DNA of 64,000 bases. Source: an uncultured Verrucomicrobiae bacterium (GTDB lineage: Bacteria > Verrucomicrobiota > Verrucomicrobiia > Chthoniobacterales > JAATET01). The notes beneath the pieces are model-generated. The model ran no database searches, had not been told where the DNA came from, and saw only the letters and a list, made by a program, of their open reading frames with translations. Of the stretch, positions 9,760-56,138 are shown piece after piece (the stretch's first letter is position 1; every line of letters begins with the position of its first letter). A program made the translations under genes and the position numbers. The stretch lies in NCBI GenBank assembly GCA_963749035.1, contig CAVVKW010000004.1:1335550-1399549 (forward strand), in the 5' to 3' direction.

Positions 9760-10389
9760 ATGAATCACCAACTTTCTCGTTTTCTCACCACCGGCACCCT
9801 CGTCGTCGCCGCGCTCGCCCTCGGAGCCTGCGCCACGACGACTACCCTCAGCGGTCGCGCCAACGCCTTCACTTTCGACCCCGACGTCAAGGAGCCGACG
9901 AATCGCTCCAACGTGAAGGTCAAACTTAGCACCAGCGCCCAAAAACTTTACGTCGTCGAAGGGGACAAAGTCCTCCTCGCCACCCCCGTTTCCGTTGGCA
10001 CGGCGGCGACTCCCACCCCCAAGGGCACTTTCCCTGTCCGAGCCAAGGTTGCCGAACGCCGTCGCGTCAGCAGTCCCGGGGCCGGCTATCCCATGCCCTA
10101 TTGGATCGAATTTTACGGCCCGGCCTACGGAATGCACTGGGGCTTCGTCAAGCCCTACCCCAGCACGATGGGCTGCGTTCGCATGCCGCTGAAGTCTGCG
10201 AAAAAAGTCTTCAACCTCGTGAGCGTCGGCACTCCGATCAACATCGCGACCACCCAACCGGAAGACCAAACCATCGGCAAAACGCTCCCCGTCCTCGACG
10301 ACGGCCCGCTTCCGAACCCACCCGATTCCTACATGCTCAGCTCGCAAGCCATGGCCGATATTCGCCAGGGCAAGCTCTGGAAATTCTAG
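9760..10389 (+). CDS. L,D-transpeptidase (YkuD domain) lipoprotein
   Basis: Lipobox LALGAC. YkuD active-site context GMHWGFVKPYPSTMGCVRM (His ... Cys). Confidence 0.85.
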   Translation: MNHQLSRFLTTGTLVVAALALGACATTTTLSGRANAFTFDPDVKEPTNRSNVKVKLSTSAQKLYVVEGDKVLLATPVSVGTAATPTPKGTFPVRAKVAERRRVSSPGAGYPMPYWIEFYGPAYGMHWGFVKPYPSTMGCVRMPLKSAKKVFNLVSVGTPINIATTQPEDQTIGKTLPVLDDGPLPNPPDSYMLSSQAMADIRQGKLWKF

Positions 10390-10528: not shown

Positions 10529-13144
10529 ATGGCCGAGATCTCCAAAGGTTACGAACCTCAGTCCGTCGAAGACAAATGGTATGACCAGTGGCTCGCGGAC
10601 GGCAATTTCGCCGCCGACCCCGCGTCCCCAAAGCCCGCTTATTCGATCGTTATCCCCCCGCCAAACGTCACTGGCGTCCTGACCCTCGGTCACGTTCTGA
10701 ACAATACCATCCAGGACATCCTTGCCCGTCGAGCCCGCCTCACCGGCCACGAAGTCCTTTGGCTTCCCGGCACCGACCACGCCGGCATCGCCACCCAGAC
10801 CGTCGTCGAACGACGACTCCGCAAAGAGGAGAAGAAAACTCGCCACGACCTCGGCCGCGACGTCTTTCTGGAACGCGTCTGGGCGTGGAAAGAACAGCAC
10901 GGCGGCATCATCATCAACCAACTCAAGAAGCTCGGTTGCTCCTGCGACTGGGAACGTGAGCGCTTCACGATGGACGCAGCCTACGCCCGCTGCGTGCAGG
11001 AAACTTTCGTCGACCTCCATCGCAAAGGTCTCATCTACCGCGGCAAGCGGATGGTGAACTGGTGCCCCGCTTCCCTCACCGCCCTCAGTGACGAGGAGGT
11101 CATCCCGACCCCGCAGAAAAGTTTCCTCTACCATTTCCGCGTCGAGGTCGTCGAGGAACCCGGAACCTTTCTCGAGATCGCCACCACCCGACCCGAGACC
11201 ATCATGGGAGACAGCGGCGTCGCCGTGAATCCTGCCGACCCACGCTTCGCGGCCTACGTCGGCAAACACGTTCGTCGTCCACTCCCGCTCACCGACCAGA
11301 TTGCCATCCCGATCGTCGCGGACGAATCCGTCGACTTCGAATTCGGGACTGGCGTTCTCAAAGTCACCCCCGCTCACGACAAGGTCGATCACGAGATCGG
11401 CCTCCGGCACGGTCTCAAGGTCATCGACGTCATCAATCCCGATGGAACGATGAACGACCTCGCCGGCCCCGACTTCGCCGGCCTTGATCGGTTCGAGGCC
11501 CGCAAGAAAGCCGCGACCCAACTCGTCGAGCTCGAACTTCTCGTCAAGGAAGAGCCTTACCAGAATACCGTCGGTTTCTCCGAACGCGCCGGCGTTCCCA
11601 TCGAGCCTCGTCTGAGCGAGCAGTGGTTTCTCAAGTATCCGAAGACCGCGGAGGCGCGCGACACCGTTCGCGATCACCTCATCCGCTTCTTCCCCGAGCG
11701 CTGGGAAAAAGTTTACGACCACTGGCTCGAGAACATCCAGGACTGGTGCATTTCTCGCCAACTCTGGTGGGGCCACCGCATCCCCGTCTGGTATCCGCCC
11801 GCCGCGGAAGACCAATCCGAAATCCGCGTTCAAGTCGACAGTCCCGGCGCTGGCTGGACTCAGGACCCCGACGTCCTCGACACCTGGTTCTCGTCCTGGC
11901 TCTGGGCCCACGAGACGATGGACGAACCGACTCGGGCAAAATTCTACCCGACGTCAGTCCTCGTCACCGGTCCCGACATCATCTTCTTCTGGGTCGCCCG
12001 CATGATCATGGCCGGGCTCGAATACACGGACGCCATCCCGTTTCGCGACGTTTACTTCACCGGCATCATTCGGGACAAAGGCGGAAAGAAGATGTCGAAG
12101 TCTCTCGGCAACTCCCCCGACCCACTCGACCTCATCGCCAAATTCGGCGCCGATGGCCTCCGCTTTGGCCTCATGCGGATCGCCCCGCAAGGTCAGGACA
12201 TCAAATTCGACGAGCAACAAATCGTCGAAGGCCGAAACTTCTGCAACAAGTTCTGGAACGCTTGCCGCTTCCGCCTCCTCCAAGGCCCGATCGACCCCAA
12301 CGCCTCCCCCGATCGCGACACCCTCTCGGTTTTCGCCCGCGATCTGCTGAACAAGCTCGACGCCACCCTGACTCGTATCGACGACGGTTACTCGAACTAT
12401 CGTTTCAGCGAAATCGCCCAGTCACTCTATGATTTTATCTGGGGCGATTTTTGCGATCGGTTCATCGAATCAGCCAAATCCGATTTTTTCTCCGACGATC
12501 CCGAGACAGCCGACCGTAAGGCCGGCACCCTCGCGGCTATTGATTACACGATCCGCCGCGTCCTCCTCGTCCTTCACCCCTACACGCCATTCCTCACCGA
12601 AGAACTCTGGCACGGGCTCGGATTTGGCGACAACACGATCCAATTCGAGCCCTGGCCTGCCGCCAGCGGGACCGCTGACGTCGAAGCCACCCGACGCGCA
12701 GCCGAGTTCTACGAAGCCGTTTCCGCCGCCCGCACGCTTCGCGCGACGTTCAACCTGCCGTCGAGCCAAAAGCTCCCGTGGCGGATTCGACCCTCCGTCG
12801 ATTGGGTCACCCGCGAACTTCCGGTCCTCTCGACGCTTCTCAACGCCAAGTCCCTCGACCTCGAATCCTCCGAGTCCCCGAGCGGCATGGCCGTCTGCGC
12901 CACCGCCATCGGTGAAATTTTCCTCCCCCTCGAAGGCCTCGTCGACCCGACCTCCGAACGCGTTCGTCTCGACGCGGAAATGGAGAAGGTCCGTGCCGAA
13001 ATCACCAAGGTCGACCGCAAACTCTCCAGCGAGAAGTTCGTCAAAAACGCCCCACCGGAGATCATCGCCGAGCACCGCGAGCGCCAGAAAAATTGGGCCG
13101 ACCGGCTGAAGACTCTGCAACGCGCCCAGGCCGCCCTCGGCTGA
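10529..13144 (+). CDS. valS: Valine--tRNA ligase
   Basis: 871 aa. Class I motifs PPPNVTGVLTLGH and KMSKSLGN; ValRS-type editing region; C-terminal coiled coil. Confidence 0.96.
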   Translation: MAEISKGYEPQSVEDKWYDQWLADGNFAADPASPKPAYSIVIPPPNVTGVLTLGHVLNNTIQDILARRARLTGHEVLWLPGTDHAGIATQTVVERRLRKEEKKTRHDLGRDVFLERVWAWKEQHGGIIINQLKKLGCSCDWERERFTMDAAYARCVQETFVDLHRKGLIYRGKRMVNWCPASLTALSDEEVIPTPQKSFLYHFRVEVVEEPGTFLEIATTRPETIMGDSGVAVNPADPRFAAYVGKHVRRPLPLTDQIAIPIVADESVDFEFGTGVLKVTPAHDKVDHEIGLRHGLKVIDVINPDGTMNDLAGPDFAGLDRFEARKKAATQLVELELLVKEEPYQNTVGFSERAGVPIEPRLSEQWFLKYPKTAEARDTVRDHLIRFFPERWEKVYDHWLENIQDWCISRQLWWGHRIPVWYPPAAEDQSEIRVQVDSPGAGWTQDPDVLDTWFSSWLWAHETMDEPTRAKFYPTSVLVTGPDIIFFWVARMIMAGLEYTDAIPFRDVYFTGIIRDKGGKKMSKSLGNSPDPLDLIAKFGADGLRFGLMRIAPQGQDIKFDEQQIVEGRNFCNKFWNACRFRLLQGPIDPNASPDRDTLSVFARDLLNKLDATLTRIDDGYSNYRFSEIAQSLYDFIWGDFCDRFIESAKSDFFSDDPETADRKAGTLAAIDYTIRRVLLVLHPYTPFLTEELWHGLGFGDNTIQFEPWPAASGTADVEATRRAAEFYEAVSAARTLRATFNLPSSQKLPWRIRPSVDWVTRELPVLSTLLNAKSLDLESSESPSGMAVCATAIGEIFLPLEGLVDPTSERVRLDAEMEKVRAEITKVDRKLSSEKFVKNAPPEIIAEHRERQKNWADRLKTLQRAQAALG

Positions 13145-18076: not shown

Positions 18077-18224
18077 CGCAGGAAAGGGGGAGAAGTGCCA
18101 GAGAACTACGGCAAAGAGGAGCGAGTTACCGTTGCTGCATTCCTGCCCTGGCGGGGTTCACCCGTCCGCAGTCCATAGCCCCTGGCAGCGGTGACAATAC
18201 GAATCCTCCGCCGCCGCGCAACCC

Positions 18225-31832: not shown

Positions 31833-33437
31833 ATGGCCTCGTCCCCCTCCCCGCCGTGTGATTCCATCCCGCGGACCGTGAAACCGTATTTCATCACCAC
31901 CGCGATCGACTACACCAACGGCGCCCCGCACACCGGGCACGCCTACGAAAAGGTCCTCGCCGATGCCCTCGCCCGCTTCCAACGCCAGTCTGGACGCGAC
32001 GTGTTCTTCCTGACCGGCGTCGACCAGCACGGCCAAAAAGTCCAGCAATCTGCCGAAAAACTCGGCATCCAACCCGCCGAATTTGTCGAAAATCTCACCG
32101 CCCAGTTCCGCTCCCTCTGGAGCGATCTCGCCATCAGCAACAATGCCTGGGCCGCCACCACCGACCCGCTCCACGTCCGCTGCGTGCAAGGCATCCTTCA
32201 GCAACTTTTCGACGCTGGCCAGATCTACCGCAGCACCCAGACCGGCCACTACAGCGTCCGCCAGGAACAATTCGTCACCGACAAGGAACGCGGACCCGAC
32301 GGCGAATTCGGCCCCGAGTGGGGCGAAGTCACGCTCATCGAGGAAGAGAACTACTACTTCCGCCTCGAGAAACACCGCGACTGGCTCCTCGACTACGTCG
32401 ACACCCACCCCAACTTCATCACTCCCGAATTCCGTCGGACCGAACTCCGCAACGCCGTCGAAAAGCTCACCGGCGACCTCTGCATCTCCCGCCCCAAGTC
32501 CCGCCTCCAGTGGGGCATCGAGCTCCCCTTCGACCCCGACTTCGTCACCTACGTCTGGTTCGACGCCCTCATCAACTACATCTCCTTCGCCGGCTACGAA
32601 CCCTCATCCCCACTCAACACTCAACTCTCAACACTCAACTTCACCTGGCCCGCGCTCCACGTCATCGGCAAGGACATTCTCATCCCCGCCCACGGCGTTT
32701 ACTGGCCCATCATGCTTCACGCCATCGGCTTCCCCGACGACGCCATCCCACCGCTCCTCGTTCACGGCTGGTGGAACATCTCCGGCGCGAAGATGAGCAA
32801 AAGCCTCGGCAACGTCGTCGCCCCCACCGAACTCATCGAACGCTACGGCGCCGATGCCGTCCGCTATTATCTGCTCGCCGACATCGTCACCGGACGCGAC
32901 GCCGACTTCAACCCGACCCGCCTCGAAGAGCGCTACAACTCCGATCTCGCCAACGGCATCGGCAACCTCCTCAACCGCACGCTGAACATGGCGAAAAAGT
33001 ATCGCGAAGGAGTCCTCCGATCCGACACCACCGACGGACTCCGCCCCGCCGCCGAGTCCGCCGTCGCGGCCTACACCGCCGCCTTCGAGCGGTCCGATCC
33101 TCGCGCCGCCATCGACGCCATCGTCGACCTCGCCAACGCCGCCAACCAACACGTCGACCAGTCCGCCCCGTGGAAACTTGCCAAGTCTGAGAGTGACGCC
33201 GCCGCTCTCGACACCGTCCTCTACCACCTCGCCGAAACGACCCGCATCCTCGCCATCCTCCTCAACCCCATCGTCCCGACCGCAGCGGAGAAGATCGCCA
33301 CCCAACTCGCCATCGACCCCGCCACCCTCACGATGGCCAACGCGACCTGGGGCGGCCTCCCCGACGGCCACACCCTCTCCGCCCCATCGCCGGTCTTCCC
33401 CCGAATCGACACGACGAAGTCGAGTGTTGAAAGTTGA
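31833..33437 (+). CDS. metG: Methionine--tRNA ligase
   Basis: 534 aa from ATG 31833. HIGH-type HTGHAYE and KMSKSLGN. The track ORF from 31734 overlaps the preceding permease. Confidence 0.95.
   Translation: MASSPSPPCDSIPRTVKPYFITTAIDYTNGAPHTGHAYEKVLADALARFQRQSGRDVFFLTGVDQHGQKVQQSAEKLGIQPAEFVENLTAQFRSLWSDLAISNNAWAATTDPLHVRCVQGILQQLFDAGQIYRSTQTGHYSVRQEQFVTDKERGPDGEFGPEWGEVTLIEEENYYFRLEKHRDWLLDYVDTHPNFITPEFRRTELRNAVEKLTGDLCISRPKSRLQWGIELPFDPDFVTYVWFDALINYISFAGYEPSSPLNTQLSTLNFTWPALHVIGKDILIPAHGVYWPIMLHAIGFPDDAIPPLLVHGWWNISGAKMSKSLGNVVAPTELIERYGADAVRYYLLADIVTGRDADFNPTRLEERYNSDLANGIGNLLNRTLNMAKKYREGVLRSDTTDGLRPAAESAVAAYTAAFERSDPRAAIDAIVDLANAANQHVDQSAPWKLAKSESDAAALDTVLYHLAETTRILAILLNPIVPTAAEKIATQLAIDPATLTMANATWGGLPDGHTLSAPSPVFPRIDTTKSSVES
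32611..32638. repeat. Heptamer tandem repeat CACTCAA x4 inside the metG coding sequence
   Basis: CACTCAA CACTCAA CTCTCAA CACTCAA, read directly. Translates in frame as part of PLNTQLSTLN. Confidence 0.85.
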
Positions 33438-33495
33438 GTGTTGAGTGGAGAGCCCTCTGCATCTCAGGCCACTCAACACTCAACACTCAACACTC
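33422..33495. repeat. Long hairpin built from inverted heptamer arrays (TTGAGTG)n / (CACTCAA)n spanning the metG stop
   Basis: Arms 33422-33448 and 33469-33495 pair at 25 of 27 positions around a 20-nt loop. The metG stop TGA (33435-33437) lies inside the 5-prime arm. No U-tract follows. Confidence 0.8.
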
Positions 33496-33512
33496 ATCAC
33501 ACCCCCGCCACA

Positions 33513-34507: not shown

Positions 34508-34539
34508 CGCGAAGGCGCGAAGGCGCGAAGGCGCGAAGA
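34508..34539. repeat. Octamer tandem repeat CGCGAAGG x4, 5 nt after the acyltransferase stop
   Basis: CGCGAAGG CGCGAAGG CGCGAAGG CGCGAAGA, read directly. Confidence 0.85.
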
Positions 34540-34650: not shown

Positions 34651-35577
34651 TTAGTCTGTTTTGGTTGTTAGGTTATTGAGTGAGTTTTCGTATTCGAGGG
34701 GTGATTGGTAGTCGAGGGAGCTATGGAGTCGGCGTGGATTGTAGAAGGTGTCGATGTAGTCGAAGAGCATCGCGTCGGCTTGGGCTCGGGTGGCCGGAGG
34801 GCCGGCGTGGAAGCATTCGGTTTTGAGAGTGGACCAGAACGACTCCATGGCGGCGTTATCATAGCAGTTGGCGCGTCGGCTCATGCTCGGCGTCACGCCG
34901 TGGGAGTCGAGCAGGGAGCGGAAAGCCCCAGCGGCGTACTGGCTGCCGCGGTCGGAATGGTGGAGTTGTGGACGAGTTCCTGAGAGCAAGACGGCGCGGC
35001 TGAAGGCGCTTTCGACGAGGGTGCTCTCCATGGTTGATCCCGTTTTCCAGCCAACGATCCGACGGGAAGCGAGGTTCATTTCGGCAGCCAGATAATGCCA
35101 GCCTTCATCGGTGGGTAGGTAGGTGATGTCAGCCACCTATGTCTGCCCAGGGGTAGACGAGGTCGTGTTGGTCGTATCGGACAAGAGCCGATTCGGGGCG
35201 ATGGGATGAGGGTGGCGGCTGTCGGTCGTGCGGGGCCGATAACGACCCTTGCGCAAGGCACATAGTCCTTTCTGGGACATCAAGCGCGAGATACGTCGTC
35301 GCCCGCAGACTTGCCCTTCTCGATCAAGGACGACGCGCAGCCGACGGGTCCCGTAGGTTCGGCGGTTCTCGTGGAAAGCCGCTTCGATCCGATCACTCAG
35401 ATCGGCGTCTTCGCGCTGGCGCAGACCTTCGGTCTTTTTCCCGTGGGCGTAGTAGCCGCTGCGACTGACTTCCAGAGCCAGGCAAAGCTCCTTGAGGGTA
35501 AAGGTGTTCTTTTCCATCGTCTCGATCAGCGCGAAGCGTTCCACGGTTCCTGACCCAAAATGGCGCAGGCTTTTTTT
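34651..35577 (-). pseudogene. IS3-family transposase OrfB (DDE/rve integrase core) interrupted by an in-frame TAG
   Basis: The two track ORFs (35137-35745 and 34651-35136) are in the same frame and contiguous. Sequence reads ...CAG ACA TAG GTG GCT GAC ATC ACC = PGQT*VADITY, where family members carry W (PNQxWxxDITY). DDE residues are otherwise intact (ADITY, HSDRGSQY, NAAMESFW). Confidence 0.8.
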
Positions 35578-35953: not shown

Positions 35954-35977
35954 CTTCGCGTCTTCGCGTCTTCGCGT
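35954..35977. repeat. Octamer tandem repeat CTTCGCGT x3 (= ACGCGAAG on the minus strand), just after the methyltransferase stop
   Basis: Read directly. It is the inverted orientation of the 34508-34539 array. Confidence 0.85.
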
Positions 35978-41587: not shown

Positions 41588-42448
41588 GTGATTTCCCGCC
41601 AACGCATAAACGGCCTCACCGCCCAGCGCAAACCTCTGGTCCATTTTCTCGCCTCTCTCGCGGTTATCGTTTTCCTACCGACCGCGGGCGCCGTTGACGA
41701 AGTCCTTCTCAAAAGTGGCCAACGCGTCTCCGGCACCATCGTCGCCCAATCCAAAGACCAGGTCGTCATGCAGGTCGGAGAAGGCAGCATCGTTTACCCC
41801 AAGCGCGCCATCCGTCGCATCTACGATGGCATCACCCGGGACTCACCCGTCGTCGAGATTCCCGCCGGTGACGAGCTTCCACCCTGGTGGATTCCCCTCA
41901 CCGACCTCTACTCCGCCGACTGGGTGAACTCCGTCGAAAGCATCCCGGCCACCCCCATCACCTCCGGCCCCTTCGAAAACGTCCCCTACCTCTCGTTCCG
42001 CGCCAACGCGAACTACGAGCTGAACGTCTTCGGCGATCCGGCCGACCCCGCCGGATTCGGAATCGGCTACAACTCCCGCTCGAAGCCCCGCCGCGACGTC
42101 ATCGAAAACTGCCGCAACTTCCTCTTCTCCTACCTCACCGAACTCGATCAGATCAACGCCTTCTACGACCTCGACCCCAGCGGCGGCACCCGCTCCGCCA
42201 AAGGTCTCACCATCGAGATCACACCCCCGGGCTCCGAGAGCCCCTTCGCCGACTGGGGAATTCTTATCTACGATCCCGATCGACTGGCCGCCGCCCGCAG
42301 CAGCACCCGCTCCGAATTTACAAAAACCTCCTCCCGCTACCTCGACGTCGTTCGCAACTCCACCGACAACGTCTTGAAATGGCAAAAATGGGAACTCACC
42401 GACGCCCTCGAGCGCCTCATCCCCATGGAGAACGTCAACGTCCGTTGA
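41588..42448 (+). CDS. Secreted hypothetical protein
   Basis: 286 aa, GTG start, hydrophobic signal-anchor LVHFLASLAVIVFLPTAGA. N-terminal module LLKSGQRVSGTI resembles that of the 8485 ORF. Confidence 0.55.
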   Translation: MISRQRINGLTAQRKPLVHFLASLAVIVFLPTAGAVDEVLLKSGQRVSGTIVAQSKDQVVMQVGEGSIVYPKRAIRRIYDGITRDSPVVEIPAGDELPPWWIPLTDLYSADWVNSVESIPATPITSGPFENVPYLSFRANANYELNVFGDPADPAGFGIGYNSRSKPRRDVIENCRNFLFSYLTELDQINAFYDLDPSGGTRSAKGLTIEITPPGSESPFADWGILIYDPDRLAAARSSTRSEFTKTSSRYLDVVRNSTDNVLKWQKWELTDALERLIPMENVNVR

Positions 42449-42453
42449 TCACC

Positions 42454-42488
42454 AATCCGAAATCCAAAATCCGAAATCCAAAATTCCC
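42454..42488. repeat. Heptamer tandem repeat AATCCRA x5 filling the spacer before trpA
   Basis: AATCCGA AATCCAA AATCCGA AATCCAA AATTCCC, directly followed by the trpA GTG at 42489. Confidence 0.85.
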
Positions 42489-43301
42489 GTGAGTCGTATT
42501 GAAGCCACCTTCGACCGCCTTCGCGCCGCCGATCAGACCGGCTTCGTCGCCTACGTCACCGGCGGCGACCCGTCGCGCGAAGCCACCGTCGAGATCGCCT
42601 GCGCTCTCGCCGACTGCGGAGTCGACGTCCTCGAGCTCGGCGTCCCCTTTTCCGACCCCCTCGCCGACGGTGCCACCATCCAAGCCGCCGCCGGCCGCGC
42701 CCTCGCCGCCGGCATCACCGTATCCAACCTACTCGAGTCTCTCCGCGTCATCCGCGACCGCTGCCCCGATCTCGCCATCGTCCTCTTCACTTACCTGAAC
42801 CCCGTTTACACCTACGGCTTCGAGCGCTTCCACGCCGACGCCGCAGCCGCCGGGGCCGACGGCCTTCTCATCCTCGACCTTCCGCCCGACGAAGCCGAGC
42901 GAAACGCCGAACTCGCCGGCACCCACGGCATCCAGACCATCCGACTCATCGCCCCAACCACCCCACCGCACCGAATGACCCGCATCGCCACCTCCGCGGC
43001 AGGCTTCATCTACTACGTCTCCCGCGAAGGCGTCACCGGCGAACAAACCGAACTCTCCGCCACGATCGAGTCCCAAGTCGCCGAACTCCGCCGTCACACC
43101 AAGCTCCCGATCGCCGTCGGTTTCGGTATCTCCACCCCCGAACAAGCCGCCGACGTCGCCCGTCACGCCGACGCCGTCGTCGTCGGCAGTGCCATCGTCC
43201 GCCGCATCGCCGAGCACGCCAAGGCCCCCGACCTTCCGCAGAAAATCGCCGACTTCGTCCGTCCCTTGGTGGACGCTACCAAATCCAAAAACCCGTGCTA
43301 G
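42489..43301 (+). CDS. trpA: Tryptophan synthase alpha chain
   Basis: 270 aa. YVTGGDPS, ELGVPFSDPLADG and GFGIS motifs. No trpB is adjacent. Confidence 0.95.
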   Translation: MSRIEATFDRLRAADQTGFVAYVTGGDPSREATVEIACALADCGVDVLELGVPFSDPLADGATIQAAAGRALAAGITVSNLLESLRVIRDRCPDLAIVLFTYLNPVYTYGFERFHADAAAAGADGLLILDLPPDEAERNAELAGTHGIQTIRLIAPTTPPHRMTRIATSAAGFIYYVSREGVTGEQTELSATIESQVAELRRHTKLPIAVGFGISTPEQAADVARHADAVVVGSAIVRRIAEHAKAPDLPQKIADFVRPLVDATKSKNPC

Positions 43302-43311
43302 ATTCCCAGCC

Positions 43312-43557
43312 ATGCTAGCCCGCCTCTTCGCCGCCGCCCTCGCCCTCAGCCTCACCGCCTGCATCTCCATCGACATGCTCGCCCGCGCCGAAGGCCGGAT
43401 CCCCCCATCCGAAGCCAACAATCCCCGCGCCGTCGCCTACCCGCCCCAGCCCGCCTACTACGCCCTCGTCCCGCTGACGCTCCCCCTCGACCTGATCACC
43501 TTCCCCGCCCAATACATCTACTTCAACACCGGCGACCGAAGAGCCCCCCAGTATTGA
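43312..43557 (+). CDS. Small hypothetical lipoprotein
   Basis: 81 aa from ATG 43312. Lipobox LSLTAC. Lies 10 nt after the trpA stop. Confidence 0.5.
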   Translation: MLARLFAAALALSLTACISIDMLARAEGRIPPSEANNPRAVAYPPQPAYYALVPLTLPLDLITFPAQYIYFNTGDRRAPQY

Positions 43558-43616
43558 GGAATAGACCCAGGCAATTGACTCGTTCGCTCCGGTAGCCGCC
43601 TGACTCCAGGGCTCCG

Positions 43617-43643
43617 TTAATCCTGACAATCCTGTTAATCCTG
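43617..43643. repeat. Nonamer tandem repeat WWAATCCTG x3 abutting the recD2 stop
   Basis: TTAATCCTG ACAATCCTG TTAATCCTG, then T and the stop codon complement CTA at 43645-43647. The gene-sense strand reads CAGGATT x3. Confidence 0.85.
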
Positions 43644-43644
43644 T

Positions 43645-45813
43645 CTAGTTAGAGACCCCCGCCAGCCGAACCCCCAGCCCCCCACACCGCTCGCGCACGC
43701 GGTTATTTCGCACCGCCGCCGCCAGTGCCTTCCGCTGGCCGACCACGATCACCAGCGACTTCCCCCGCGTGATCGCCGTGTAGATCAGATTCCGCTGCAG
43801 CAGCACAAACTGCTCCATCGCCACCGGCACGATCACGCACGGAAACTCCGAGCCCTGGCTCTTGTGCACCGTGATCGCCCACGCCGGATCCAGTTCGTCC
43901 AGTTCGCCAAAATCATAGACGATCCGTCGCCCCTCGAACTCCACCACCGCCTCCCGCTCGCCCCCGTCCACCGCCCGCACCACCCCGATGTCCCCGTTGA
44001 ACACCTCCTTGTCGTAGTTGTTCCGCGTCTGGATCACTTTGTCGCCCTCGCGGAAAACAACTCCAAACCGCTCCACCTCCCCCGCACCCTCCCGCTTCGG
44101 GTTCAACTCCCCCTGCAGCCGAGTATTCACGTTCCGCACCCCGAGTTTCCCCTTGTTCATCGGCGCGAGCACCTGAACGTCCCGCACCGGATCAAACCCA
44201 AACTTCCCCGGCACCCGCCGCGCCGCCACCTCGACCAGCGTCTCCAAAGCCGCGTCCGTATCCTCCCGCTCGATGAAGAAAAAATCCCCACCCTCCCGGT
44301 GCGTCAGATCGGGAAGCGCACCGGCGTTGATCGAATGGGCCGCCGTCACGATCCCACTCGCCTCCGCCTGACGAAACACCACGTCCAGCCGCGCCGCCGG
44401 GACGGCCCCACTCCCGATTACGTCCCGCAGAACCAGTCCCGGCCCCACACTCGGCAACTGATCCGCGTCCCCCACCAGCAGCACGTTCCCCCGCCCCGGC
44501 ACCGCCCGCAAAAACCGCGCCATCAACGGCACGTCGACCATCGACACCTCGTCCATCACGAACAAATCTCCCGGGAGCGGGTTCCCCTCGTGCCGCTTGA
44601 ACCCCCCGCCCCGCTCCGGCTCCAGCAGCCGATGAATCGTCATCGCCTCCATTCCCGTCGACTCCGCCAGCCGCTTCGCCGCCCGCCCCGTCGGCGCACA
44701 CAGCACGCACCGCACCCCCTTCGCCCGCAAAATCTTCAGCACCGAATTCACCAGCGTAGTCTTCCCCACCCCCGGTCCACCCGTCACCACCGCCACCGCC
44801 CGCGTCACCGCCACCCGCAGCGCCGCCGCCTGCGAATCCGACAACGTCTTCCCCGTCCGTTCCTGCACCCAACCCAGCGCCCGCTCCACGTCCATTTCCG
44901 GATACCCCGTCACCTCGCGCCCCGCCAGCACCCGCAACCGCTCCGCCACCATCCGCTCCGCCGCGCGCATCGGCGGCAGATAGATCAACTCCCGCCCGCC
45001 CAACGTCTCCGCCACCAGCTCCTCCCGCTCCACCGCCCCCGCCAGCACCCGTTCTGCCAATTCCTCCCCCACCTCCAGCAGCTCCACCGCCGCCCGCACC
45101 AGATCCCGCCGCACCATCGCGCAATGACCCTCCCCGCCCGCCTCGTCCAGGCAGTGCGCCAACCCCGCCCGCACCCGCAGCACCGAGTCGCCCGCCAGCC
45201 CCAGCTTCCCCGCGATCCCGTCCGCGCTCTTGAACCCAATCCCCCGAATGTCCCGCGCCAGGCAGTAGGGATCGGTTCGAATCCGCTCGATCGCCTCCTC
45301 CCCGTAGCTCTTGTAAACCCGCACCGCCCGACTCGTGCTCACCCCGTTCGCGTGCAGGAACACCATGATCTCCCGCACCACCCGCTGCTCCGCCCACGCC
45401 GCCTTGATCGACCGCCGCCGCTCCGTCCCGATTCCCCCGACCTCGCTCAGTCGCCCGGACTCGTTCTCGATCACCGAAAACACCTCCTCGCCAAAAGCCG
45501 CCACCAGCTTCTTCGCGTAAACCGGCCCAATCCCCTTGATCATCCCGCTCGCCAGATACTTCTCGATCCCCTCCCGGCTGTCCGGCGGCTGCGTCTCCAC
45601 CCTCTCCGCCTTCAATTGCATCCCGTGCTCCCGATCGCGCACCCACCGACCCTCCGCCGTGATCCATTCCCCCGGCGACACCACCGCGACGTTCCCGATC
45701 ACCGTCACCAATTCCCGCCGCCCGCGCACGTCGACGCGCAACACCGCAAACCCCGTCTCCTCGTTGTGAAACGTCACCCGCTCCACCACACCCCGCACAC
45801 CATCGTCCGTCAT
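43645..45813 (-). CDS. recD2: RecD2-type SF1 ATP-dependent DNA helicase
   Basis: 722 aa from ATG 45813. Walker A GGPGVGKTT, DEVSMVD, LLVGDADQLPSVGPG; C-terminal SH3-like region and YTAITRGK. Confidence 0.9.
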   Translation of the reverse strand: MTDDGVRGVVERVTFHNEETGFAVLRVDVRGRRELVTVIGNVAVVSPGEWITAEGRWVRDREHGMQLKAERVETQPPDSREGIEKYLASGMIKGIGPVYAKKLVAAFGEEVFSVIENESGRLSEVGGIGTERRRSIKAAWAEQRVVREIMVFLHANGVSTSRAVRVYKSYGEEAIERIRTDPYCLARDIRGIGFKSADGIAGKLGLAGDSVLRVRAGLAHCLDEAGGEGHCAMVRRDLVRAAVELLEVGEELAERVLAGAVEREELVAETLGGRELIYLPPMRAAERMVAERLRVLAGREVTGYPEMDVERALGWVQERTGKTLSDSQAAALRVAVTRAVAVVTGGPGVGKTTLVNSVLKILRAKGVRCVLCAPTGRAAKRLAESTGMEAMTIHRLLEPERGGGFKRHEGNPLPGDLFVMDEVSMVDVPLMARFLRAVPGRGNVLLVGDADQLPSVGPGLVLRDVIGSGAVPAARLDVVFRQAEASGIVTAAHSINAGALPDLTHREGGDFFFIEREDTDAALETLVEVAARRVPGKFGFDPVRDVQVLAPMNKGKLGVRNVNTRLQGELNPKREGAGEVERFGVVFREGDKVIQTRNNYDKEVFNGDIGVVRAVDGGEREAVVEFEGRRIVYDFGELDELDPAWAITVHKSQGSEFPCVIVPVAMEQFVLLQRNLIYTAITRGKSLVIVVGQRKALAAAVRNNRVRERCGGLGVRLAGVSN

Positions 45814-45910
45814 AAAACCCAACCGCCCGGGGACCGCGACCTTCCAGATCGCCACGCGCGCCTTCCAGCCGCGCGCCCCAACCCAACGGCAAAGCCGCAC
45901 TTCCCCCGCC

Positions 45911-47143
45911 TCACAGCTCCCGCCGCAACCGATCCAAGGCCGCCTGGGTCACCAGCTGCTTGAACGTCGCCCGGTCCGTCGGGAACGACTCCCGCCACAC
46001 CTCGACCTCCCCACCCCGCTTCGCCAGCGCGATAAAAACCGTCCCCACCGGCTTCTCGTCCGTCCCGCCGCCCGGCCCAGCGACCCCCGTCGTCGCCAAA
46101 GCGAAGTCCGTCCCCGCCCGCTCGCACGCCCCCGCCGCCATCGCCCGCGCCACCTCCGCGCTCACCGCCCCCTTCGCCCCGATCAACTCCGCGTCCACCC
46201 CCAGTTCCCCCACCTTCGCCTCGTTCGCGTAAGTCACCCACCCCCGCAGATACACCGCCGACGACCCCGGCACGTCCGTCACCCGACTGGCCAGCAACCC
46301 CCCCGTGCACGACTCCGCCGTCGCCAGCGTCAACCCCCGCTCGACCAACCGACCCACCACGACTGTTTCCAACCCCTCCCCGCCCAGTGTAACCAAATAT
46401 TCCCCCAGCTCCGCCCTCACCTCCGCCTCGACGGAATCCAATACCGCCGACTCCCCGATCAACCGCAGATCCACCTCGTTCGGTCTCGCGCAATACCCGA
46501 CCTCCAGCCCCGCCACGGCATTCAGCCGAGCGCCGAGCCTCGCCTCCACCACCGACTCCCCGATCCCCACGCAACGGAACGTCCGACACTCCCGCACCGC
46601 CGCGCCCGCGTTCAGGTCCGCCAACCGCGGCAACACCTCCGCCTCAAACATTCTCCGCAGTTCCCGCGGCGGCCCCGGCAGCAAAAACAGATGCGGCGAC
46701 CGCCAACTCGGAGCCTCCACCGCCGACAGATACAACCCCGGTGCCGTCCCACTCGCGTTCGGCAGCACCACCGCACCTTCCGGCACCATCGCCTGACGCC
46801 CCATTCGCTCCTGAAAAGCGAACCCCCGTCCTTTGCAAAGCGCGCGGATTCCCGCCAGCACCCCGTCGTCCCGCACCAACCGCCGCCCCAGCAACTCCGC
46901 GACGATCTCCCGCGTCAAATCATCCGACGTCGGCCCCAGTCCGCCCGTCACCAGAACGACGTCCGGATCCCGTTCGAACGCATTCAACAAAGCGTCCCGG
47001 ATCGCCGCCCCGTCCGGTACCGTCACCTGCCAATCCACCCGCAGTCCGATCCCAAACAAGCGCTCCCCAAAATAAGCGAGGTGCGAATTCACCACTGCCC
47101 CCAGCAGCAGCTCCGTCCCCGTGTTAACGACCTCGACCCGCAT
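45911..47143 (-). CDS. cinA: CinA (competence/damage-inducible; MoCF-binding plus nicotinamide-nucleotide amidase domains)
   Basis: 410 aa. N-terminus VVNTGTELLLG ... TGGLGPTSDD and C-terminal ESCTGG motif. Confidence 0.9.
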   Translation of the reverse strand: MRVEVVNTGTELLLGAVVNSHLAYFGERLFGIGLRVDWQVTVPDGAAIRDALLNAFERDPDVVLVTGGLGPTSDDLTREIVAELLGRRLVRDDGVLAGIRALCKGRGFAFQERMGRQAMVPEGAVVLPNASGTAPGLYLSAVEAPSWRSPHLFLLPGPPRELRRMFEAEVLPRLADLNAGAAVRECRTFRCVGIGESVVEARLGARLNAVAGLEVGYCARPNEVDLRLIGESAVLDSVEAEVRAELGEYLVTLGGEGLETVVVGRLVERGLTLATAESCTGGLLASRVTDVPGSSAVYLRGWVTYANEAKVGELGVDAELIGAKGAVSAEVARAMAAGACERAGTDFALATTGVAGPGGGTDEKPVGTVFIALAKRGGEVEVWRESFPTDRATFKQLVTQAALDRLRREL

Positions 47144-47204
47144 CCTTCAAAGCCGCGAAGCGGCCCGCCATTTCACATTCAGCATTCCGAGATTGCGGAG
47201 CGAT

Positions 47205-48026
47205 CTAGGCCGTCAGCACACGAATCCATCCATCGACCAGCGCGTGCTTCTCCGCGTCCTGCCGCAGATCGTAAACGTAAAGCAGATTCGCCAACACCCG
47301 GATCAAGACCTGCCGCCCACTCGCATCCGCGAGATGCGTGTCGCTCAGCTCCAGGTTCTGCTTCGTCAATATCGCCTGGCAATCCGCCTTCGACATGATC
47401 CGCCCCCGGTGAAACGGATCGAAAAACAAATCCCCGTGCCGCGCGATAAAGTGCCCCGGCAGATTCACCCCCGCCACGCCCATCCCCGCCCGTGCCGCCA
47501 CCATCCGGTAAAGCAGCGTCAGCGTGATCGGGATGCCCATCCGCGATTCGATCACCCCCGGCAGCAGACAATTTCGCTCGCTGTAGTAATCGTCCGTGTT
47601 CCCCCGAAAGCCCAGCTCCCCCGCCATGAAACGCGACAACAGCAGCACCCGCTCCCGGCTCGAGACCGCCCCGCTGCTCTTGATCAAAAACTGCCGCCCC
47701 CACGCGTTCACCTTCGTTTCCATCTGCTCGATCTCGTCCTCCGGCACCAGCGCCCGCGCCAGCATCCAATTCGCCCGCTCCAGATCGTTCTGATCCCCGA
47801 AGAAATGACACAGCAACCCAAAGTCGTCCGACGCCTCGCGTCCCTCGATCGTCTTCAGCACGTCCCGCGCGTGACCCGCCGCCGGTCCGCAGCCACCTCC
47901 CAGGTCGAGGAGCTGATCCCTCGCCTCCTCTCCAGCCTTGACCAGCTGCTCCTTCACGAGCCGAACCGTTTCCGGATCATCGTCCTCCAACAAACGGACA
48001 ATCGCCTCACTCTGACCAGGAATCAT
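47205..48026 (-). CDS. SirB1/YchA-like transglutaminase-like plus TPR-like protein
   Basis: 273 aa. GNTDDYYSERNCLLPGVIESRMGIPITL ... NLPGHFIARH pattern of the UPF0162 family. Confidence 0.7.
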   Translation of the reverse strand: MIPGQSEAIVRLLEDDDPETVRLVKEQLVKAGEEARDQLLDLGGGCGPAAGHARDVLKTIEGREASDDFGLLCHFFGDQNDLERANWMLARALVPEDEIEQMETKVNAWGRQFLIKSSGAVSSRERVLLLSRFMAGELGFRGNTDDYYSERNCLLPGVIESRMGIPITLTLLYRMVAARAGMGVAGVNLPGHFIARHGDLFFDPFHRGRIMSKADCQAILTKQNLELSDTHLADASGRQVLIRVLANLLYVYDLRQDAEKHALVDGWIRVLTA

Positions 48027-48076
48027 ATCTCAAACCGTTAGTCCACAACCCACCACAGCGCAACTTCTCAAGCCTC

Positions 48077-48262
48077 TCAATCCGCCGAAATGTCCACGCT
48101 CAGCACCGCACCCGGCTCACACCGCACCCGCACCGTCGCCGGACGGCAACACACCGCGCAATCCTCCACCACCACCAACTCGGCCGTCGTCGTCTCCACT
48201 TCGATAAAAAATTCCTCCCCGCAGTTCGGACACCCAATCCCGATTTCTTCAACGACGTCCAT
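48077..48262 (-). CDS. CPXCG-motif cysteine-rich small protein
   Basis: 61 aa. CPNCG ... EDCAVCCRP zinc-ribbon-like arrangement. Confidence 0.7.
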   Translation of the reverse strand: MDVVEEIGIGCPNCGEEFFIEVETTTAELVVVEDCAVCCRPATVRVRCEPGAVLSVDISAD

Positions 48263-48276
48263 CGAATCCCTCTCAA

Positions 48277-48636
48277 CTACAAACTCTCAACTTCCAACTC
48301 TAACCGCGGCGCATCCCCCCACAAATCCTCCAGCGAGTAAAACTCGCGCGACTCGTGATGAAACACGTGCACCACGACTTGCGCGTAATCGATCACGATC
48401 CACCGACTCCCCGCCGCCCCGTCCTCCGCGTAAGGACCAAAGCCAAACCGCTCCCTGACCCCCGAGCGCACCGAGGCCCCGATCGCCCGGAGTTGCGGGT
48501 CCGACATCCCGCTACACACCACGAAATAGTCGCAAAACGACGACTTCCCACGCAGGTCCAGCACCGCAATGTCTTCCGCTTTCCGGTCCGCCGCGTATTC
48601 CGCGCAAGCCCTCGCCAGCGATTCCGCCTCACTCAT
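48277..48636 (-). CDS. rsfS: Ribosome silencing factor RsfS
   Basis: 119 aa. DYFVVCSG ... WIVIDYAQVVVHVF ... FYSLEDLW family pattern. Confidence 0.9.
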   Translation of the reverse strand: MSEAESLARACAEYAADRKAEDIAVLDLRGKSSFCDYFVVCSGMSDPQLRAIGASVRSGVRERFGFGPYAEDGAAGSRWIVIDYAQVVVHVFHHESREFYSLEDLWGDAPRLELEVESL

Positions 48637-48725
48637 TCCCCGCCCACGCTCCCCCGGCTAAAATCGTCACAACGCATCCCGCACACAGCTAAGGCAACAC
48701 CCCACCTCACGCAACGCCATTTCAT

Positions 48726-48778
48726 AAATCCGAAATCCAAAATCCCGAATCCGAAATCCTCAATCCGAAATCCAAAAC
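48726..48778. repeat. Heptamer tandem repeat AAATCCN x7-8 between nadD stop and rsfS
   Basis: AAATCCG AAATCCA AAATCCC GAATCCG AAATCCT CAATCCG AAATCCA AAAC. It runs straight into the nadD stop codon complement at 48779-48781. Confidence 0.85.
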
Positions 48779-49342
48779 TCACCCCCCCCGGTAAAGCCCC
48801 TCCCGCTCGATCACCGCCAACACTCCCTCCGGCACCAGATACCGGATCGACAACCCGCTCGCCACCCGCCCCCGCACCCCCGTCGACGAAATGTCGATCA
48901 TCCGCGTCACCACCGGCATCCCCTCCGGCACCACCACGTCCCGCCGCGTCAGCACGACAAACGTCACCAACCGCCGCAACTCGTCGATCTCCCGCCACTT
49001 CTCCAGGTCGGCCAAATTGTCGTCCCCGATCAAATAATAGAGCTCCGCCGCCGGCCACCGCGCCCCCAGCTCCCGCACCGTCTCGATCGCAAACGTCGCC
49101 CCCTCCCGCCAAATCTCCAGCTCGCTGACCTCAAACCCCCGCTCCCCCGCCACCGCCGCCCGCACCATCTCCAGCCGCACCGCCGCCGAAGCTGGCGGCG
49201 CCTCCAGCTTAAACGGCGACACCCCCGCCGGAATCAGCACCACCCGATCCAGACCAAGCCGCTCCCCCGCCTCCCGCGCCAAAATCAGATGCCCGCAGTG
49301 AATCGGATCAAAACTCCCACCAAAAAGTCCAATTCGCTCCAT
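48779..49342 (-). CDS. nadD: Nicotinate-nucleotide adenylyltransferase
   Basis: 187 aa from ATG 49342 (MERIGLFGGSFDPIHCGHL). The upstream extension in the track ORF is a translation of the heptamer repeat. Confidence 0.9.
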   Translation of the reverse strand: MERIGLFGGSFDPIHCGHLILAREAGERLGLDRVVLIPAGVSPFKLEAPPASAAVRLEMVRAAVAGERGFEVSELEIWREGATFAIETVRELGARWPAAELYYLIGDDNLADLEKWREIDELRRLVTFVVLTRRDVVVPEGMPVVTRMIDISSTGVRGRVASGLSIRYLVPEGVLAVIEREGLYRGG

Positions 49343-49362
49343 CACCACGCAGTATTCCCTTC

Positions 49363-49397
49363 CAATCCAAAATCCAAAATCCAAAATCCAAAATCAA
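49363..49397. repeat. Heptamer tandem repeat AAATCCA x5 filling the nadD/nagZ divergent spacer
   Basis: CAATCCA AAATCCA AAATCCA AAATCCA AAATCAA, directly followed by the nagZ ATG at 49398. The whole spacer is only 55 bp. Confidence 0.85.
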
Positions 49398-50486
49398 ATG
49401 ATTGGCCAAACTCTCCTCGTCGGCGTCCCCGGCAAGACTCTCGACTCCGACACCGCCGCCCTCCTCCGCCGCATTCAGCCCGGTGGCTTCATCATTTTCT
49501 CGCGCAACATCGAGAGCCCCACCCAGCTCCGCCAGCTCCTCGACGACCTCCGCGCCATTTCCGACGTCGAACCCATCATCACCATCGACCAGGAAGGCGG
49601 CCGCGTCTCCCGCCTCCGCGAGATCGGGCACGAACCGCCAAACGCCCAGCAACTCCGCCAAAAAGGCGACCTCGACCTCATCACCTGGCACGGCCGACTC
49701 ACCGGCCACCTCCTCCGCCTCTTCGGGTTCAACCTCGACCTCTGCCCCGTTCTCGACATCTCCTTCGACGACGAGGCCGACAACTCCGTCAAAGGCCGCT
49801 GCTACGGCACGAACGTCGCCCAGGTCATCCAACTCGCCGGAGCCTTCAACGACGCCCTCCGCGGCACCGGCATCCTCAGTTGCGGCAAGCACTTCCCCGG
49901 CTACACCTCCGCGGGACTCGACCCCCACCACGAACTCCCCGCCATCAGCCGCTCCAAGGAACTCATGGAGGAGCACGAGCTCGCCGTCTTCCGCTACTTC
50001 GCCGACAAGGTCGATTCCATGATGACCGGCCACATCGCCATCGACGGCCTCGACACCTCCGGCCTCCCCGCCTCCCTCTCGCCCGCCATCACCACCGACC
50101 TCCTCAAAAAAGACGTCAAATTCGCCGGCCTCACCATGACCGACGACCTCGACATGGGCGCCATCCTCAACCACTACGGCCTCCCCGACACCCTCCGCAT
50201 GGCCCTCGAAGCCGGCAACGATCTCCTCATGATCTGTCATCGCGTCGAGATGATCGCCGAAGCCTACGACATCGTCAAAGCGCTCCCCGCCAGTGCCGTC
50301 GATCCCGCCCTGGAAAACATCGCCAAATTCAAGCGCCACCTCGCCCCACCCGACGCGTTCAGCATCGCAGCCCACACCGAACTCGACGGCGAGGTGCGAA
50401 AACTCCGAGCCGCGACGCTGGGCGAAGCCGAAGCCGACCGACACAGCCCAGAAGACGGCAAACGCAGCCCCGTCGAGCTCTACTAA
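49398..50486 (+). CDS. nagZ: Beta-N-acetylhexosaminidase (GH3, NagZ-like)
   Basis: 362 aa. IDQEGGRVSRL, KHFPGY and MTDDLDM motifs. Confidence 0.85.
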   Translation: MIGQTLLVGVPGKTLDSDTAALLRRIQPGGFIIFSRNIESPTQLRQLLDDLRAISDVEPIITIDQEGGRVSRLREIGHEPPNAQQLRQKGDLDLITWHGRLTGHLLRLFGFNLDLCPVLDISFDDEADNSVKGRCYGTNVAQVIQLAGAFNDALRGTGILSCGKHFPGYTSAGLDPHHELPAISRSKELMEEHELAVFRYFADKVDSMMTGHIAIDGLDTSGLPASLSPAITTDLLKKDVKFAGLTMTDDLDMGAILNHYGLPDTLRMALEAGNDLLMICHRVEMIAEAYDIVKALPASAVDPALENIAKFKRHLAPPDAFSIAAHTELDGEVRKLRAATLGEAEADRHSPEDGKRSPVELY

Positions 50487-53956: not shown

Positions 53957-53983
53957 GAAATCCTAATAATCCCGTAAATCCTG
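53957..53983. repeat. Nonamer tandem repeat WWAATCCYN x3 next to the stop of the 53992 gene
   Basis: GAAATCCTA ATAATCCCG TAAATCCTG, ending 8 nt before the stop codon complement TCA at 53992-53994. Same core and orientation as 43617-43643. Confidence 0.8.
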
Positions 53984-53991
53984 TCCAACCC

Positions 53992-56031: not shown

Positions 56032-56058
56032 GCTCGCGCAAGTCGGCCCAGCTGATAT

Positions 56059-56138
56059 CTCTGCCTCTCCCTGCCTCTCTGCGCCTCTGCGCGAGACCCC
56101 GTCGTCTCATCCTGCTTCGCGTTTTCGCGTCTGCGCGT
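56059..56138. repeat. Pyrimidine-rich octamer repeats (CTCTGCSY and YTTCGCGT types) in the phhB/RND convergent spacer
   Basis: CTCTGCCT CTCCCTGCCT CTCTGCGC CTCTGCGC (56059-56092) and CTTCGCGT TTTCGCGT CTGCGCGT (56115-56138). The second block resembles 35954-35977, including the flanking GGATGAG on the minus strand. Confidence 0.8.

Follow-up and report, generated by a model that had tools for sequence, protein, structure and literature searches.

Heptamer repeats at bacterial gene starts

Heptanucleotide repeats are the most over-represented class of long simple sequence repeats (SSRs) in many bacteria, and their role has stayed unsolved for decades, as the STRR, GGGAATC, and TAACTGA families illustrate. 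The TAACTGA sets of marine Beggiatoaceae and of some Cyanobacteria and Bacteroidetes comprise 2-6 forward copies that mostly end ~1 nt before start codons lacking a ribosome-binding site (RBS), and they have been suggested to act in the initiation of translation, with S1, Csp, or Csr as mediators (MacGregor 2015, PMC4679880). Here we report on three arrays of the unit AAATCCN in a 64,000-nt stretch of DNA (the window; positions are counted from its first letter) from the soil/freshwater genome of an uncultured Verrucomicrobiae bacterium of the order Chthoniobacterales. One array, immediately upstream of nagZ, appears from sequence comparison to have been kept at five units under purifying selection in seven lineages; a second precedes trpA, and the third lies between nadD and rsfS.

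These arrays share much with the TAACTGA sets. Both consist of tandem 7-nt units that are intergenic, run forward, and end at a start codon without a recognisable RBS; both stand before unrelated and partly essential genes, and in both a minority lies after stop codons or inside open reading frames (ORFs). The nagZ and trpA arrays are tandem heptads that are intergenic, forward near a start, and free of a Shine-Dalgarno (SD) sequence, whereas the nadD-rsfS array follows a stop codon and is antisense. The differences lie in the unit (here AAATCCN, or AAAATC-N), in the phylum and order (Verrucomicrobia, Chthoniobacterales), and in a fixed five-unit length with purifying selection at individual unit positions, traced here in seven lineages and not reported for TAACTGA. 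On this comparison, the AAATCCN arrays are best regarded as an analogue of the TAACTGA family and not as its homologue.

Other heptamers act in promoter regions. The hmw promoters and 5′ untranslated regions (UTRs) of Haemophilus influenzae carry phase-variable 7-bp repeats that are long, perfect, and hypervariable between and within strains, and that control surface adhesins. The present arrays are likewise 7-bp tandem units between promoter and start codon, but their tracts are short, conserved in length, and placed before housekeeping genes. In Vibrio cholerae, the TTTTGAT heptads of ctxAB are sited upstream of the core promoter; biotypes differ in how many they have, which affects promoter activity. 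They too are AT-rich tandem heptads in a short intergenic promoter region, and their reverse complement ATCAAAA resembles AATCNAA; here, however, the array runs to the start codon and the number is fixed. The ctxAB heptads are reported to recruit transcription regulators (10.1101/2021.05.14.444153). Cyanobacterial STRR and Nostoc heptamers, such as (TTCAAAA)3 and GGGGA(T/C)T, form several families per genome that are intergenic and often near start codons or promoters, with inverted array pairs, as is also the case here (10.1101/2022.06.06.494920; PMC4692102), and deletion of one Nostoc array changed reporter expression (10.1101/2022.06.06.494920). The G-rich arrays of Xanthomonas and Nostoc have been discussed as G-quadruplex formers with "extensive length and sequence variation" between close relatives (PMC4692102), whereas the nagZ array is A-rich, lacks G-tracts, and is invariant in length. 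The AAATCCN arrays thus represent a new unit and phylum within a known, functionally unsolved class of start-codon heptamer repeats, for which we infer a mechanism below. What they add, from the comparison of lineages, is evidence that purifying selection acts on an array fixed at five units.

A five-unit array at the nagZ start in seven lineages

All three arrays lie where the original prediction placed them and adjoin the stop and start codons that it named (Table 1). The nagZ array consists of 4.6 perfect AATCCAA units and ends 0 nt from the nagZ ATG. The trpA array has 4.4 units plus TTCCC, with G and A alternating at one unit position, and its repeats end 5 nt before the start codon, or 0 nt when the degenerate last unit is included. 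Interruptions occur in two of the three AATCC arrays, the nagZ tract being the exception. The nadD-rsfS array is antisense to nadD/rsfS transcription, and the mRNA reads (N)GGAUUU with dense GGA motifs, as had been noted. Orthologue alignment puts the nadD ATG at 49342, which gives a divergent nadD/nagZ spacer of 55 bp, 35 bp of them array, again as predicted; nadD is flanked on either side by AAATCCN arrays in direct orientation.

A search for the pattern AATCNNAAATCNNAAATC with at most one mismatch returned 11 matches, all in the three arrays and all on the + strand, compared with 0.02 +/- 0.14 by chance in 100 dinucleotide shuffles. Control loci of other taxa, 1.3 Mb in all, contained no array of at least three AATC at period 7. 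A further AATCC-type set, of two units, lies inside an ORF at 11814, and full sets number three per 64 kb. We considered whether the arrays are an artefact of strand composition, as AATCC occurs 140 times and GGATT 33 times. Because GC skew alone predicts an excess of ~3.2:1 (hand calculation from base counts), single AATCC copies are unremarkable; the periodicity of the arrays is not accounted for by base composition in the shuffle test, and the artefact explanation was rejected.

Orthologous nadD/nagZ loci were drawn from species genomes, from an exact-protein look-up of NagZ homologues, and from JGI metagenomes. An array of the nagZ type stands directly upstream of nagZ in seven lineages, namely (with NagZ identity to the window and array length) the window itself (100%, 34 nt), L083 (88%, 34 nt), L084 (84%, 34 nt), L003 (84%, 34 nt), L085 (76%, 35 nt), L091 (74%, 33 nt), and L088 (74%, 35 nt). 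All seven arrays thus measure 33-35 nt and comprise five units, and in six of the seven the array ends at the start codon. In L003, the last 1.5 units have been swapped for non-repeat sequence, with the length and the distance from CCTTCC to the ATG kept; CCTTCC(A) immediately precedes the array in the four closest lineages (window, L083, L084, and L003). The spacing between the nadD start and the array ranges from 12 to 22 nt, whereas the array is 0 nt from the nagZ start, and the constraint is therefore anchored on nagZ.

Conservation within the unit was counted in 28 units, the first four from each of the seven arrays. No variation occurs at positions 1, 3, and 7, almost none at 2 and 4, and little at 6; position 5 is free (C13, G11, T3, A1; 1.56 bits). 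The unit is therefore AAAATC plus one unconstrained base. All three window arrays use AATCC, and the orthologous nagZ arrays use AATCG (L083, L003) or AATCT (L084). Traces of homogenisation are visible as CA x4 in the window and as GT/GA alternation in L083. At some units, orthology by position has persisted (GA at unit 3 of L091, L085, and L003; CA at unit 4 of the window, L091, and L085), and unit turnover is accordingly slow. These comparisons indicate that the nagZ array is ancient and length-fixed. A contingency tract shows the opposite of such constancy in length and register and such position-specific conservation, and a neutral microsatellite does not show this pattern either. The locus offers a clean handle on such repeats, with one array in seven lineages at five units, and with a free position in each unit as a built-in neutral control.

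More distant relatives, whose NagZ proteins are 63-73% identical, have no nagZ array and instead a spacer of 36-100 bp with other conserved motifs. A profile of the module, run with nhmmer over all loci, found only the nagZ copies, the window arrays, and one array in L102; in the ~20-40 kb sampled per genome, the relatives have the nagZ copy and no other. In many other Verrucomicrobia, a recurrent TT(C/G)GACA ... AAATCTGGTTT(T)CCCC block stands upstream of nagZ and may be a clade-specific promoter signal.

Lineage-specific arrays at trpA and between nadD and rsfS

The trpA array begins 5 nt downstream of the stop codon of an upstream 286-aa ORF and, like the nagZ leader module, has five units in 35 nt. 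It shares the AATTCCC-start junction with the nagZ leaders of L085 and L088, and the trpA and L085 leaders differ by 7 mismatches in 39 nt (~82% identity including the 3′ junction, by hand count). The pair formed by the hypothetical gene and trpA is syntenic in L170 and L171, with TrpA orthologues 80-86% identical. The trpA orthologues of L170, L171, and L172 have no array and lie behind spacers of 146-154 bp, compared with 40 bp in the window, 35 bp of them array. The relatives' spacer carries a conserved TTGACA-N17-TGGACT motif (L170 ~9940-9975; L171 ~9935-9970), possibly a clade-specific promoter signal. The trpA copy is a recent acquisition of a nagZ-type module that replaced an ancestral, promoter-bearing spacer of ~150 bp in the window's lineage only. 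Given the shared units, length, and junction, the module now precedes a second, unrelated, essential gene, to which it was transplanted recently.

The nadD and rsfS genes overlap in six relatives (L003, L083, L085, L005, L006, and L007); in L084, 16 bp separate them. A 142-bp spacer containing the array is confined to the window's species, and the array is absent from every relative examined. This copy is recent, and is longer and more degenerate than the others; it parted two genes that had previously overlapped. In L102, an array of like configuration, TGA-(GGATTTN)n, has arisen independently.

Apart from the array, the spacer contains an 89-bp segment with a putative 30-codon ORF (MKWRCVRWGV..., 48633-48725, - strand), whose ATG at 48725 adjoins the array and which overlaps the rsfS start as ATGA. 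Strain L168 has three single-nucleotide polymorphisms (SNPs) in this segment, all non-synonymous, and the frame is still open. The ORF might be a means of regaining translational coupling once the spacer had been inserted, or simply a product of chance. We rejected a MITE or other mobile element, as the 89-bp segment has no other copy in the window or in 172 loci, and likewise an origin of the array by tandem duplication of nadD plus array, as the flanks are only weakly similar by eye and the small ORF is unlike the NadD N-terminus. At the rsfS 3′ end (48270-48301), a 14/7-mer array of CTCTCAACTACAAA x2.3 encodes the C-terminal tail LELEVESL. The tblastn match of rsfS to its L003 orthologue stops at residue 112 of 119, leaving most of the tail without a counterpart there.

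Expression context

The original prediction saw a difficulty in the little room that the arrays leave for an SD element. Because an SD core occurs upstream of only 7 of the 32 gene starts in the window, this concern does not apply. None of GGAG, GAGG, or AGGA was found upstream of nagZ and trpA, and some Verrucomicrobia have been described as "SD-scarce" (PMC10783764). In the sense mRNAs, prediction leaves the arrays wholly unpaired, and RNA folding was not significant for the nadD-rsfS spacer (z = 0.19), the nagZ leader (z = -0.63), or the trpA leader (z = 0.27). We discarded a CCAAUC/GAUUGG pairing of 6 bp that would close the nagZ array, as neither L084 nor L003 shows a compensatory change. 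An intrinsic terminator in or near the arrays was dismissed too, with terminator-like sites at chance level, as was a known RNA family or tRNA-related element: ARAGORN found nothing, and the sole Rfam match in the window at the gathering threshold is a bacterial small SRP RNA (18093-18187, - strand, RF00169, 55.8 bits).

The window has 63% G+C and a GC skew of -0.05 to -0.41 (mean about -0.25) irrespective of gene orientation. At third codon positions, + strand genes have a skew of -0.54 and - strand genes one of +0.44. Strong skew is common to the closest relatives (0.26 in L003, 0.22 in L084, and 0.17 in L083) and is not seen in more distant Chthoniobacterales.

Proposed role and rival explanations

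That the arrays are part of, or carry, expression signals, as originally suggested, is borne out for nagZ by an array fixed in length and position, with six of seven unit positions conserved in seven lineages. We propose, giving it about an even chance, that purifying selection retains the five-heptad module as a proximal expression signal, namely an SD-less leader, perhaps with -10-like boxes. Replication slippage would create the arrays and occasionally homogenise their units. To judge from its anatomy, (N-AAAATC)x5, at ~34 nt, would constitute the whole proximal upstream region of the gene; this is roughly the stretch upstream of a start codon that the 30S subunit contacts together with S1. 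The module would supply an A-rich, G-poor, structure-free, SD-less ribosome landing region up to the start codon in a high-GC, SD-poor genome. Each unit reads NAAAAT, with two key bases of the -10 hexamer, and may thereby supply an AT-rich, -10-like melting element; such a unit, together with TTCCAA 16 bp upstream, could start a transcript a few bases before the ATG. The proposal bears on gene starts in SD-poor, high-GC Verrucomicrobia generally.

Several points weigh against this proposal. Its promoter part is weak, because a strict sigma-70 consensus scan of 42300-49600 returned 0 promoter-like sites and the -35-like hexamer upstream of the module differs between copies (TTCCAA, CTCCAA, CAACAA, and CACCAA). 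The L088 array stops 15 nt short of the start codon. The nadD-rsfS array runs opposite to transcription, so it cannot act as a leader in the same way, and it probably has no role or a different one. The strain-level comparison covers one array in one other strain, and this evidence is thin because short-read contigs break at arrays. Finally, conservation of six of the seven positions in every unit is not obviously expected of a merely unstructured leader, and it fits a sequence-specific reader better.

This conservation is the reason why we keep a dedicated heptad-binding protein as a serious rival, though we consider it unlikely. The arrays would then be binding sites for a sequence-specific factor, one protein or domain per heptad, acting on DNA or RNA and co-regulating the flanked genes; a putative reader might be a cold-shock-domain, S1, or CsrA-like protein on RNA, or a regulator as at ctxAB on DNA. 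Six conserved positions and one free position in all five units are the usual look of a repeated recognition site. The shared AATCC of the window arrays, set against AATCG or AATCT in nagZ orthologues, fits co-evolution with such a factor, and the recurrence of the stop-codon configuration in L102 agrees with it. Readers of this kind (S1, Csp, or Csr) have been proposed for the TAACTGA sets (PMC4679880), and the ctxAB heptads are reported to recruit regulators (10.1101/2021.05.14.444153). However, no regulon is visible among the relatives, which have only the nagZ copy in the sequence sampled; nagZ, trpA, and nadD/rsfS have no evident common physiology; and the many unrelated heptamer units in the same genomes point to a generic origin and not to one reader. 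We also think it improbable that the arrays are neutral or selfish slippage products, that is, functionless heptamer microsatellites in spacers where they do no harm. Much about their distribution would suit this explanation: period-7 arrays of many units are enriched (6 against 0.4 in shuffles, and 9.4 against 0.7 per 100 kb in distant taxa); they run in either orientation, form inverted pairs, follow stop codons, and lie even in frame in a methionyl-tRNA synthetase (MetRS) gene and at the rsfS 3′ end; two of the three AATCC arrays are young and lineage-specific; and heptamers are over-represented among bacterial SSRs, possibly through polymerase slippage geometry (PMC4692102). It leaves unexplained, though, the unit count, register, and position-specific conservation at nagZ among proteins only 74-88% identical, and a trpA copy that took the place of an entire ancestral spacer, promoter included, ahead of an essential biosynthetic gene. 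Tolerated filler in particular is disfavoured at nagZ, because filler would not show fixed length, position, and unit conservation.

The expression-signal proposal can be widened into one that we hold only tentatively and rather doubt, in which the 35-nt (N-AAAATC)x5 would be a portable and self-contained gene-start cassette, read by a dedicated factor, RNA polymerase, or the 30S subunit, selected at nagZ across genera and copied to trpA and beside nadD. If true, bacterial heptamer repeats would have, for the first time, a defined function backed by comparative evidence.

Strain comparison and the contingency explanation

The original prediction took the 7-bp unit as the mark of a slippage-prone contingency repeat and expected copy number to vary between strains. 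Two other assemblies, GCA_049793755.1 and Logan SRR28002962, are strains 99.8-99.94% identical to the window. In GCA_049793755.1, the nagZ array is identical, with 7 SNPs in 4849 bp (99.86% identity over 4.8 kb; one array and one strain compared), so this comparison gave no sign of the expected polymorphism. Between related species, unit number does not drift: whole-unit length variation is missing from the seven nagZ arrays. The flanking genes (nadD, rsfS, nagZ, and trpA, by Pfam) are housekeeping genes and not surface, virulence, or restriction-modification genes, and the tracts are short or interrupted. A phase-variation locus, in which slipped-strand gain or loss of units switches or tunes the flanking genes at high frequency, would fit the 7-bp unit, the 4.6 perfect copies at nagZ, and their promoter/UTR position. 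Unit homogenisation in the window and L083 also shows slippage, on evolutionary time scales, and an ACTTAAA array at another locus differs by one unit between L125 and L128. Given the invariant length of the nagZ array and the housekeeping nature of its neighbours, we nonetheless rejected this explanation, which we regard as extremely improbable.

Short-read contigs of two closely related assemblies end at or inside arrays (the L001 start, the L168 start, and the L002 end, at window positions 49398, 48738, and 53991, respectively). Array k-mers are probably repeated elsewhere in the genome, and the contig breaks hint at further copies. In practical terms, the arrays fragment short-read assemblies exactly at gene starts.

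Genes around the arrays

The features discussed here are collected in Table 1. The N-terminus of TrpA agrees with its orthologues.

Table 1. Arrays, spacers, and genes (window coordinates, except where another locus is named)
Feature	Position	Strand	Description
nagZ leader array	49363..49397	+	C + (AATCCAA)x4 + AATCAA; adjoins nagZ ATG (49398); conserved five-heptad module
trpA leader array	42454..42488	+	AATCCGA AATCCAA AATCCGA AATCCAA AATTCCC; adjoins trpA GTG (42489)
nadD-rsfS array	48726..48778	+	7.4 more degenerate AAATCCN units, 77% matches; adjoins nadD stop (TCA on +, 48779-48781)
Non-repeat part of nadD/nagZ spacer	49343..49362	.	caccacgcagtattcccttc; CCTTCC runs one base into array
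Unique remainder of nadD-rsfS spacer, 89 bp	48637..48725	-	possible 30-codon ORF
nadD (nicotinate-nucleotide adenylyltransferase)	48779..49342	-	Pfam PF01467 (CTP_transf_like), E 2.7e-25; orthologues
rsfS (ribosomal silencing factor)	48277..48636	-	Pfam PF02410, E 2.7e-30
nagZ (GH3 beta-N-acetylhexosaminidase)	49398..50486	+	Pfam PF00933 (Glyco_hydro_3); JGI names of homologues
trpA (tryptophan synthase alpha chain)	42489..43301	+	Pfam PF00290, E 2.9e-87; GTG start
Conserved hypothetical 286-aa gene upstream of trpA	41588..42448	+	syntenic 283-aa gene in L170 and L171
GTCATTT array	L148 2590-2616		upstream of nagZ, within 3-7 nt
ACTTAAA array	L125 4847-4871; L128 4795-4826		3-7 nt before 1085-aa ORF; one-unit difference between L125 and L128

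A wider habit of short-period repeats

The AATCC arrays are part of a wider genome habit that is common in this Chthoniobacterales lineage. Besides the period-7 arrays, the window has 4 period-8 arrays, against 0.6 in shuffles. The number of period-7 arrays per 100 kb is 9.4 in the window, whereas the closest clade has 6.0, other Verrucomicrobia have 1.8, and distant taxa have 0.7, a level over which the window is enriched ~13-fold. Several unit families coexist, as in the STRR systems: the heptamers AAATCCN, CACTCAA, GAGTGTT, and CTCAACT, and the octamers CTTCGCGT, CGCGAAGG, and TCTCTGCC. In other Verrucomicrobia, other AT-rich heptamer arrays (ACTTAAA, GTCATTT, and, in L144, TTAAATG) stand 1-7 nt before long ORFs. 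Two nonamer arrays in the window have an AATCC core as well, one at 43616-43644, (GTTAATCCT)x3.2, adjoining the recD2 stop codon, and one at 53959-53985, AAATCCTAATAATCCCGTAAATCCTGT, in a convergent spacer.

Directly behind the metG stop (33417-33500) lies (GAGTGTT)n, and after a further 22 nt comes its reverse complement (CACTCAA)n, giving a long hairpin. The same inverted architecture occurs in L091 (14369-14447), L144 (11095-11198), and L102 (275-402), and these hairpins may be terminator-like elements made of SSRs. Within the MetRS gene, (CACTCAA)x4 at 32611-32639 is in frame and encodes part of SSPLNTQLSTLN; the loop holding SSPLNTQLSTLN is longer than in the solved MetRS 2csx. The octamer arrays (CGCGAAGG)x4 and (CTTCGCGT)x3, at 34508-34538 and 35954-35977, are near reverse complements of each other and flank a 1.4-kb segment with a truncated rve-type (IS3-like) integrase ORF (34651-35136). 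A third CTTCGCGT-type array lies at 56115-56138, beside a (TCTCTGCC)n array at 56058, and L003 carries a related (CGCAGAGG)x3 array.

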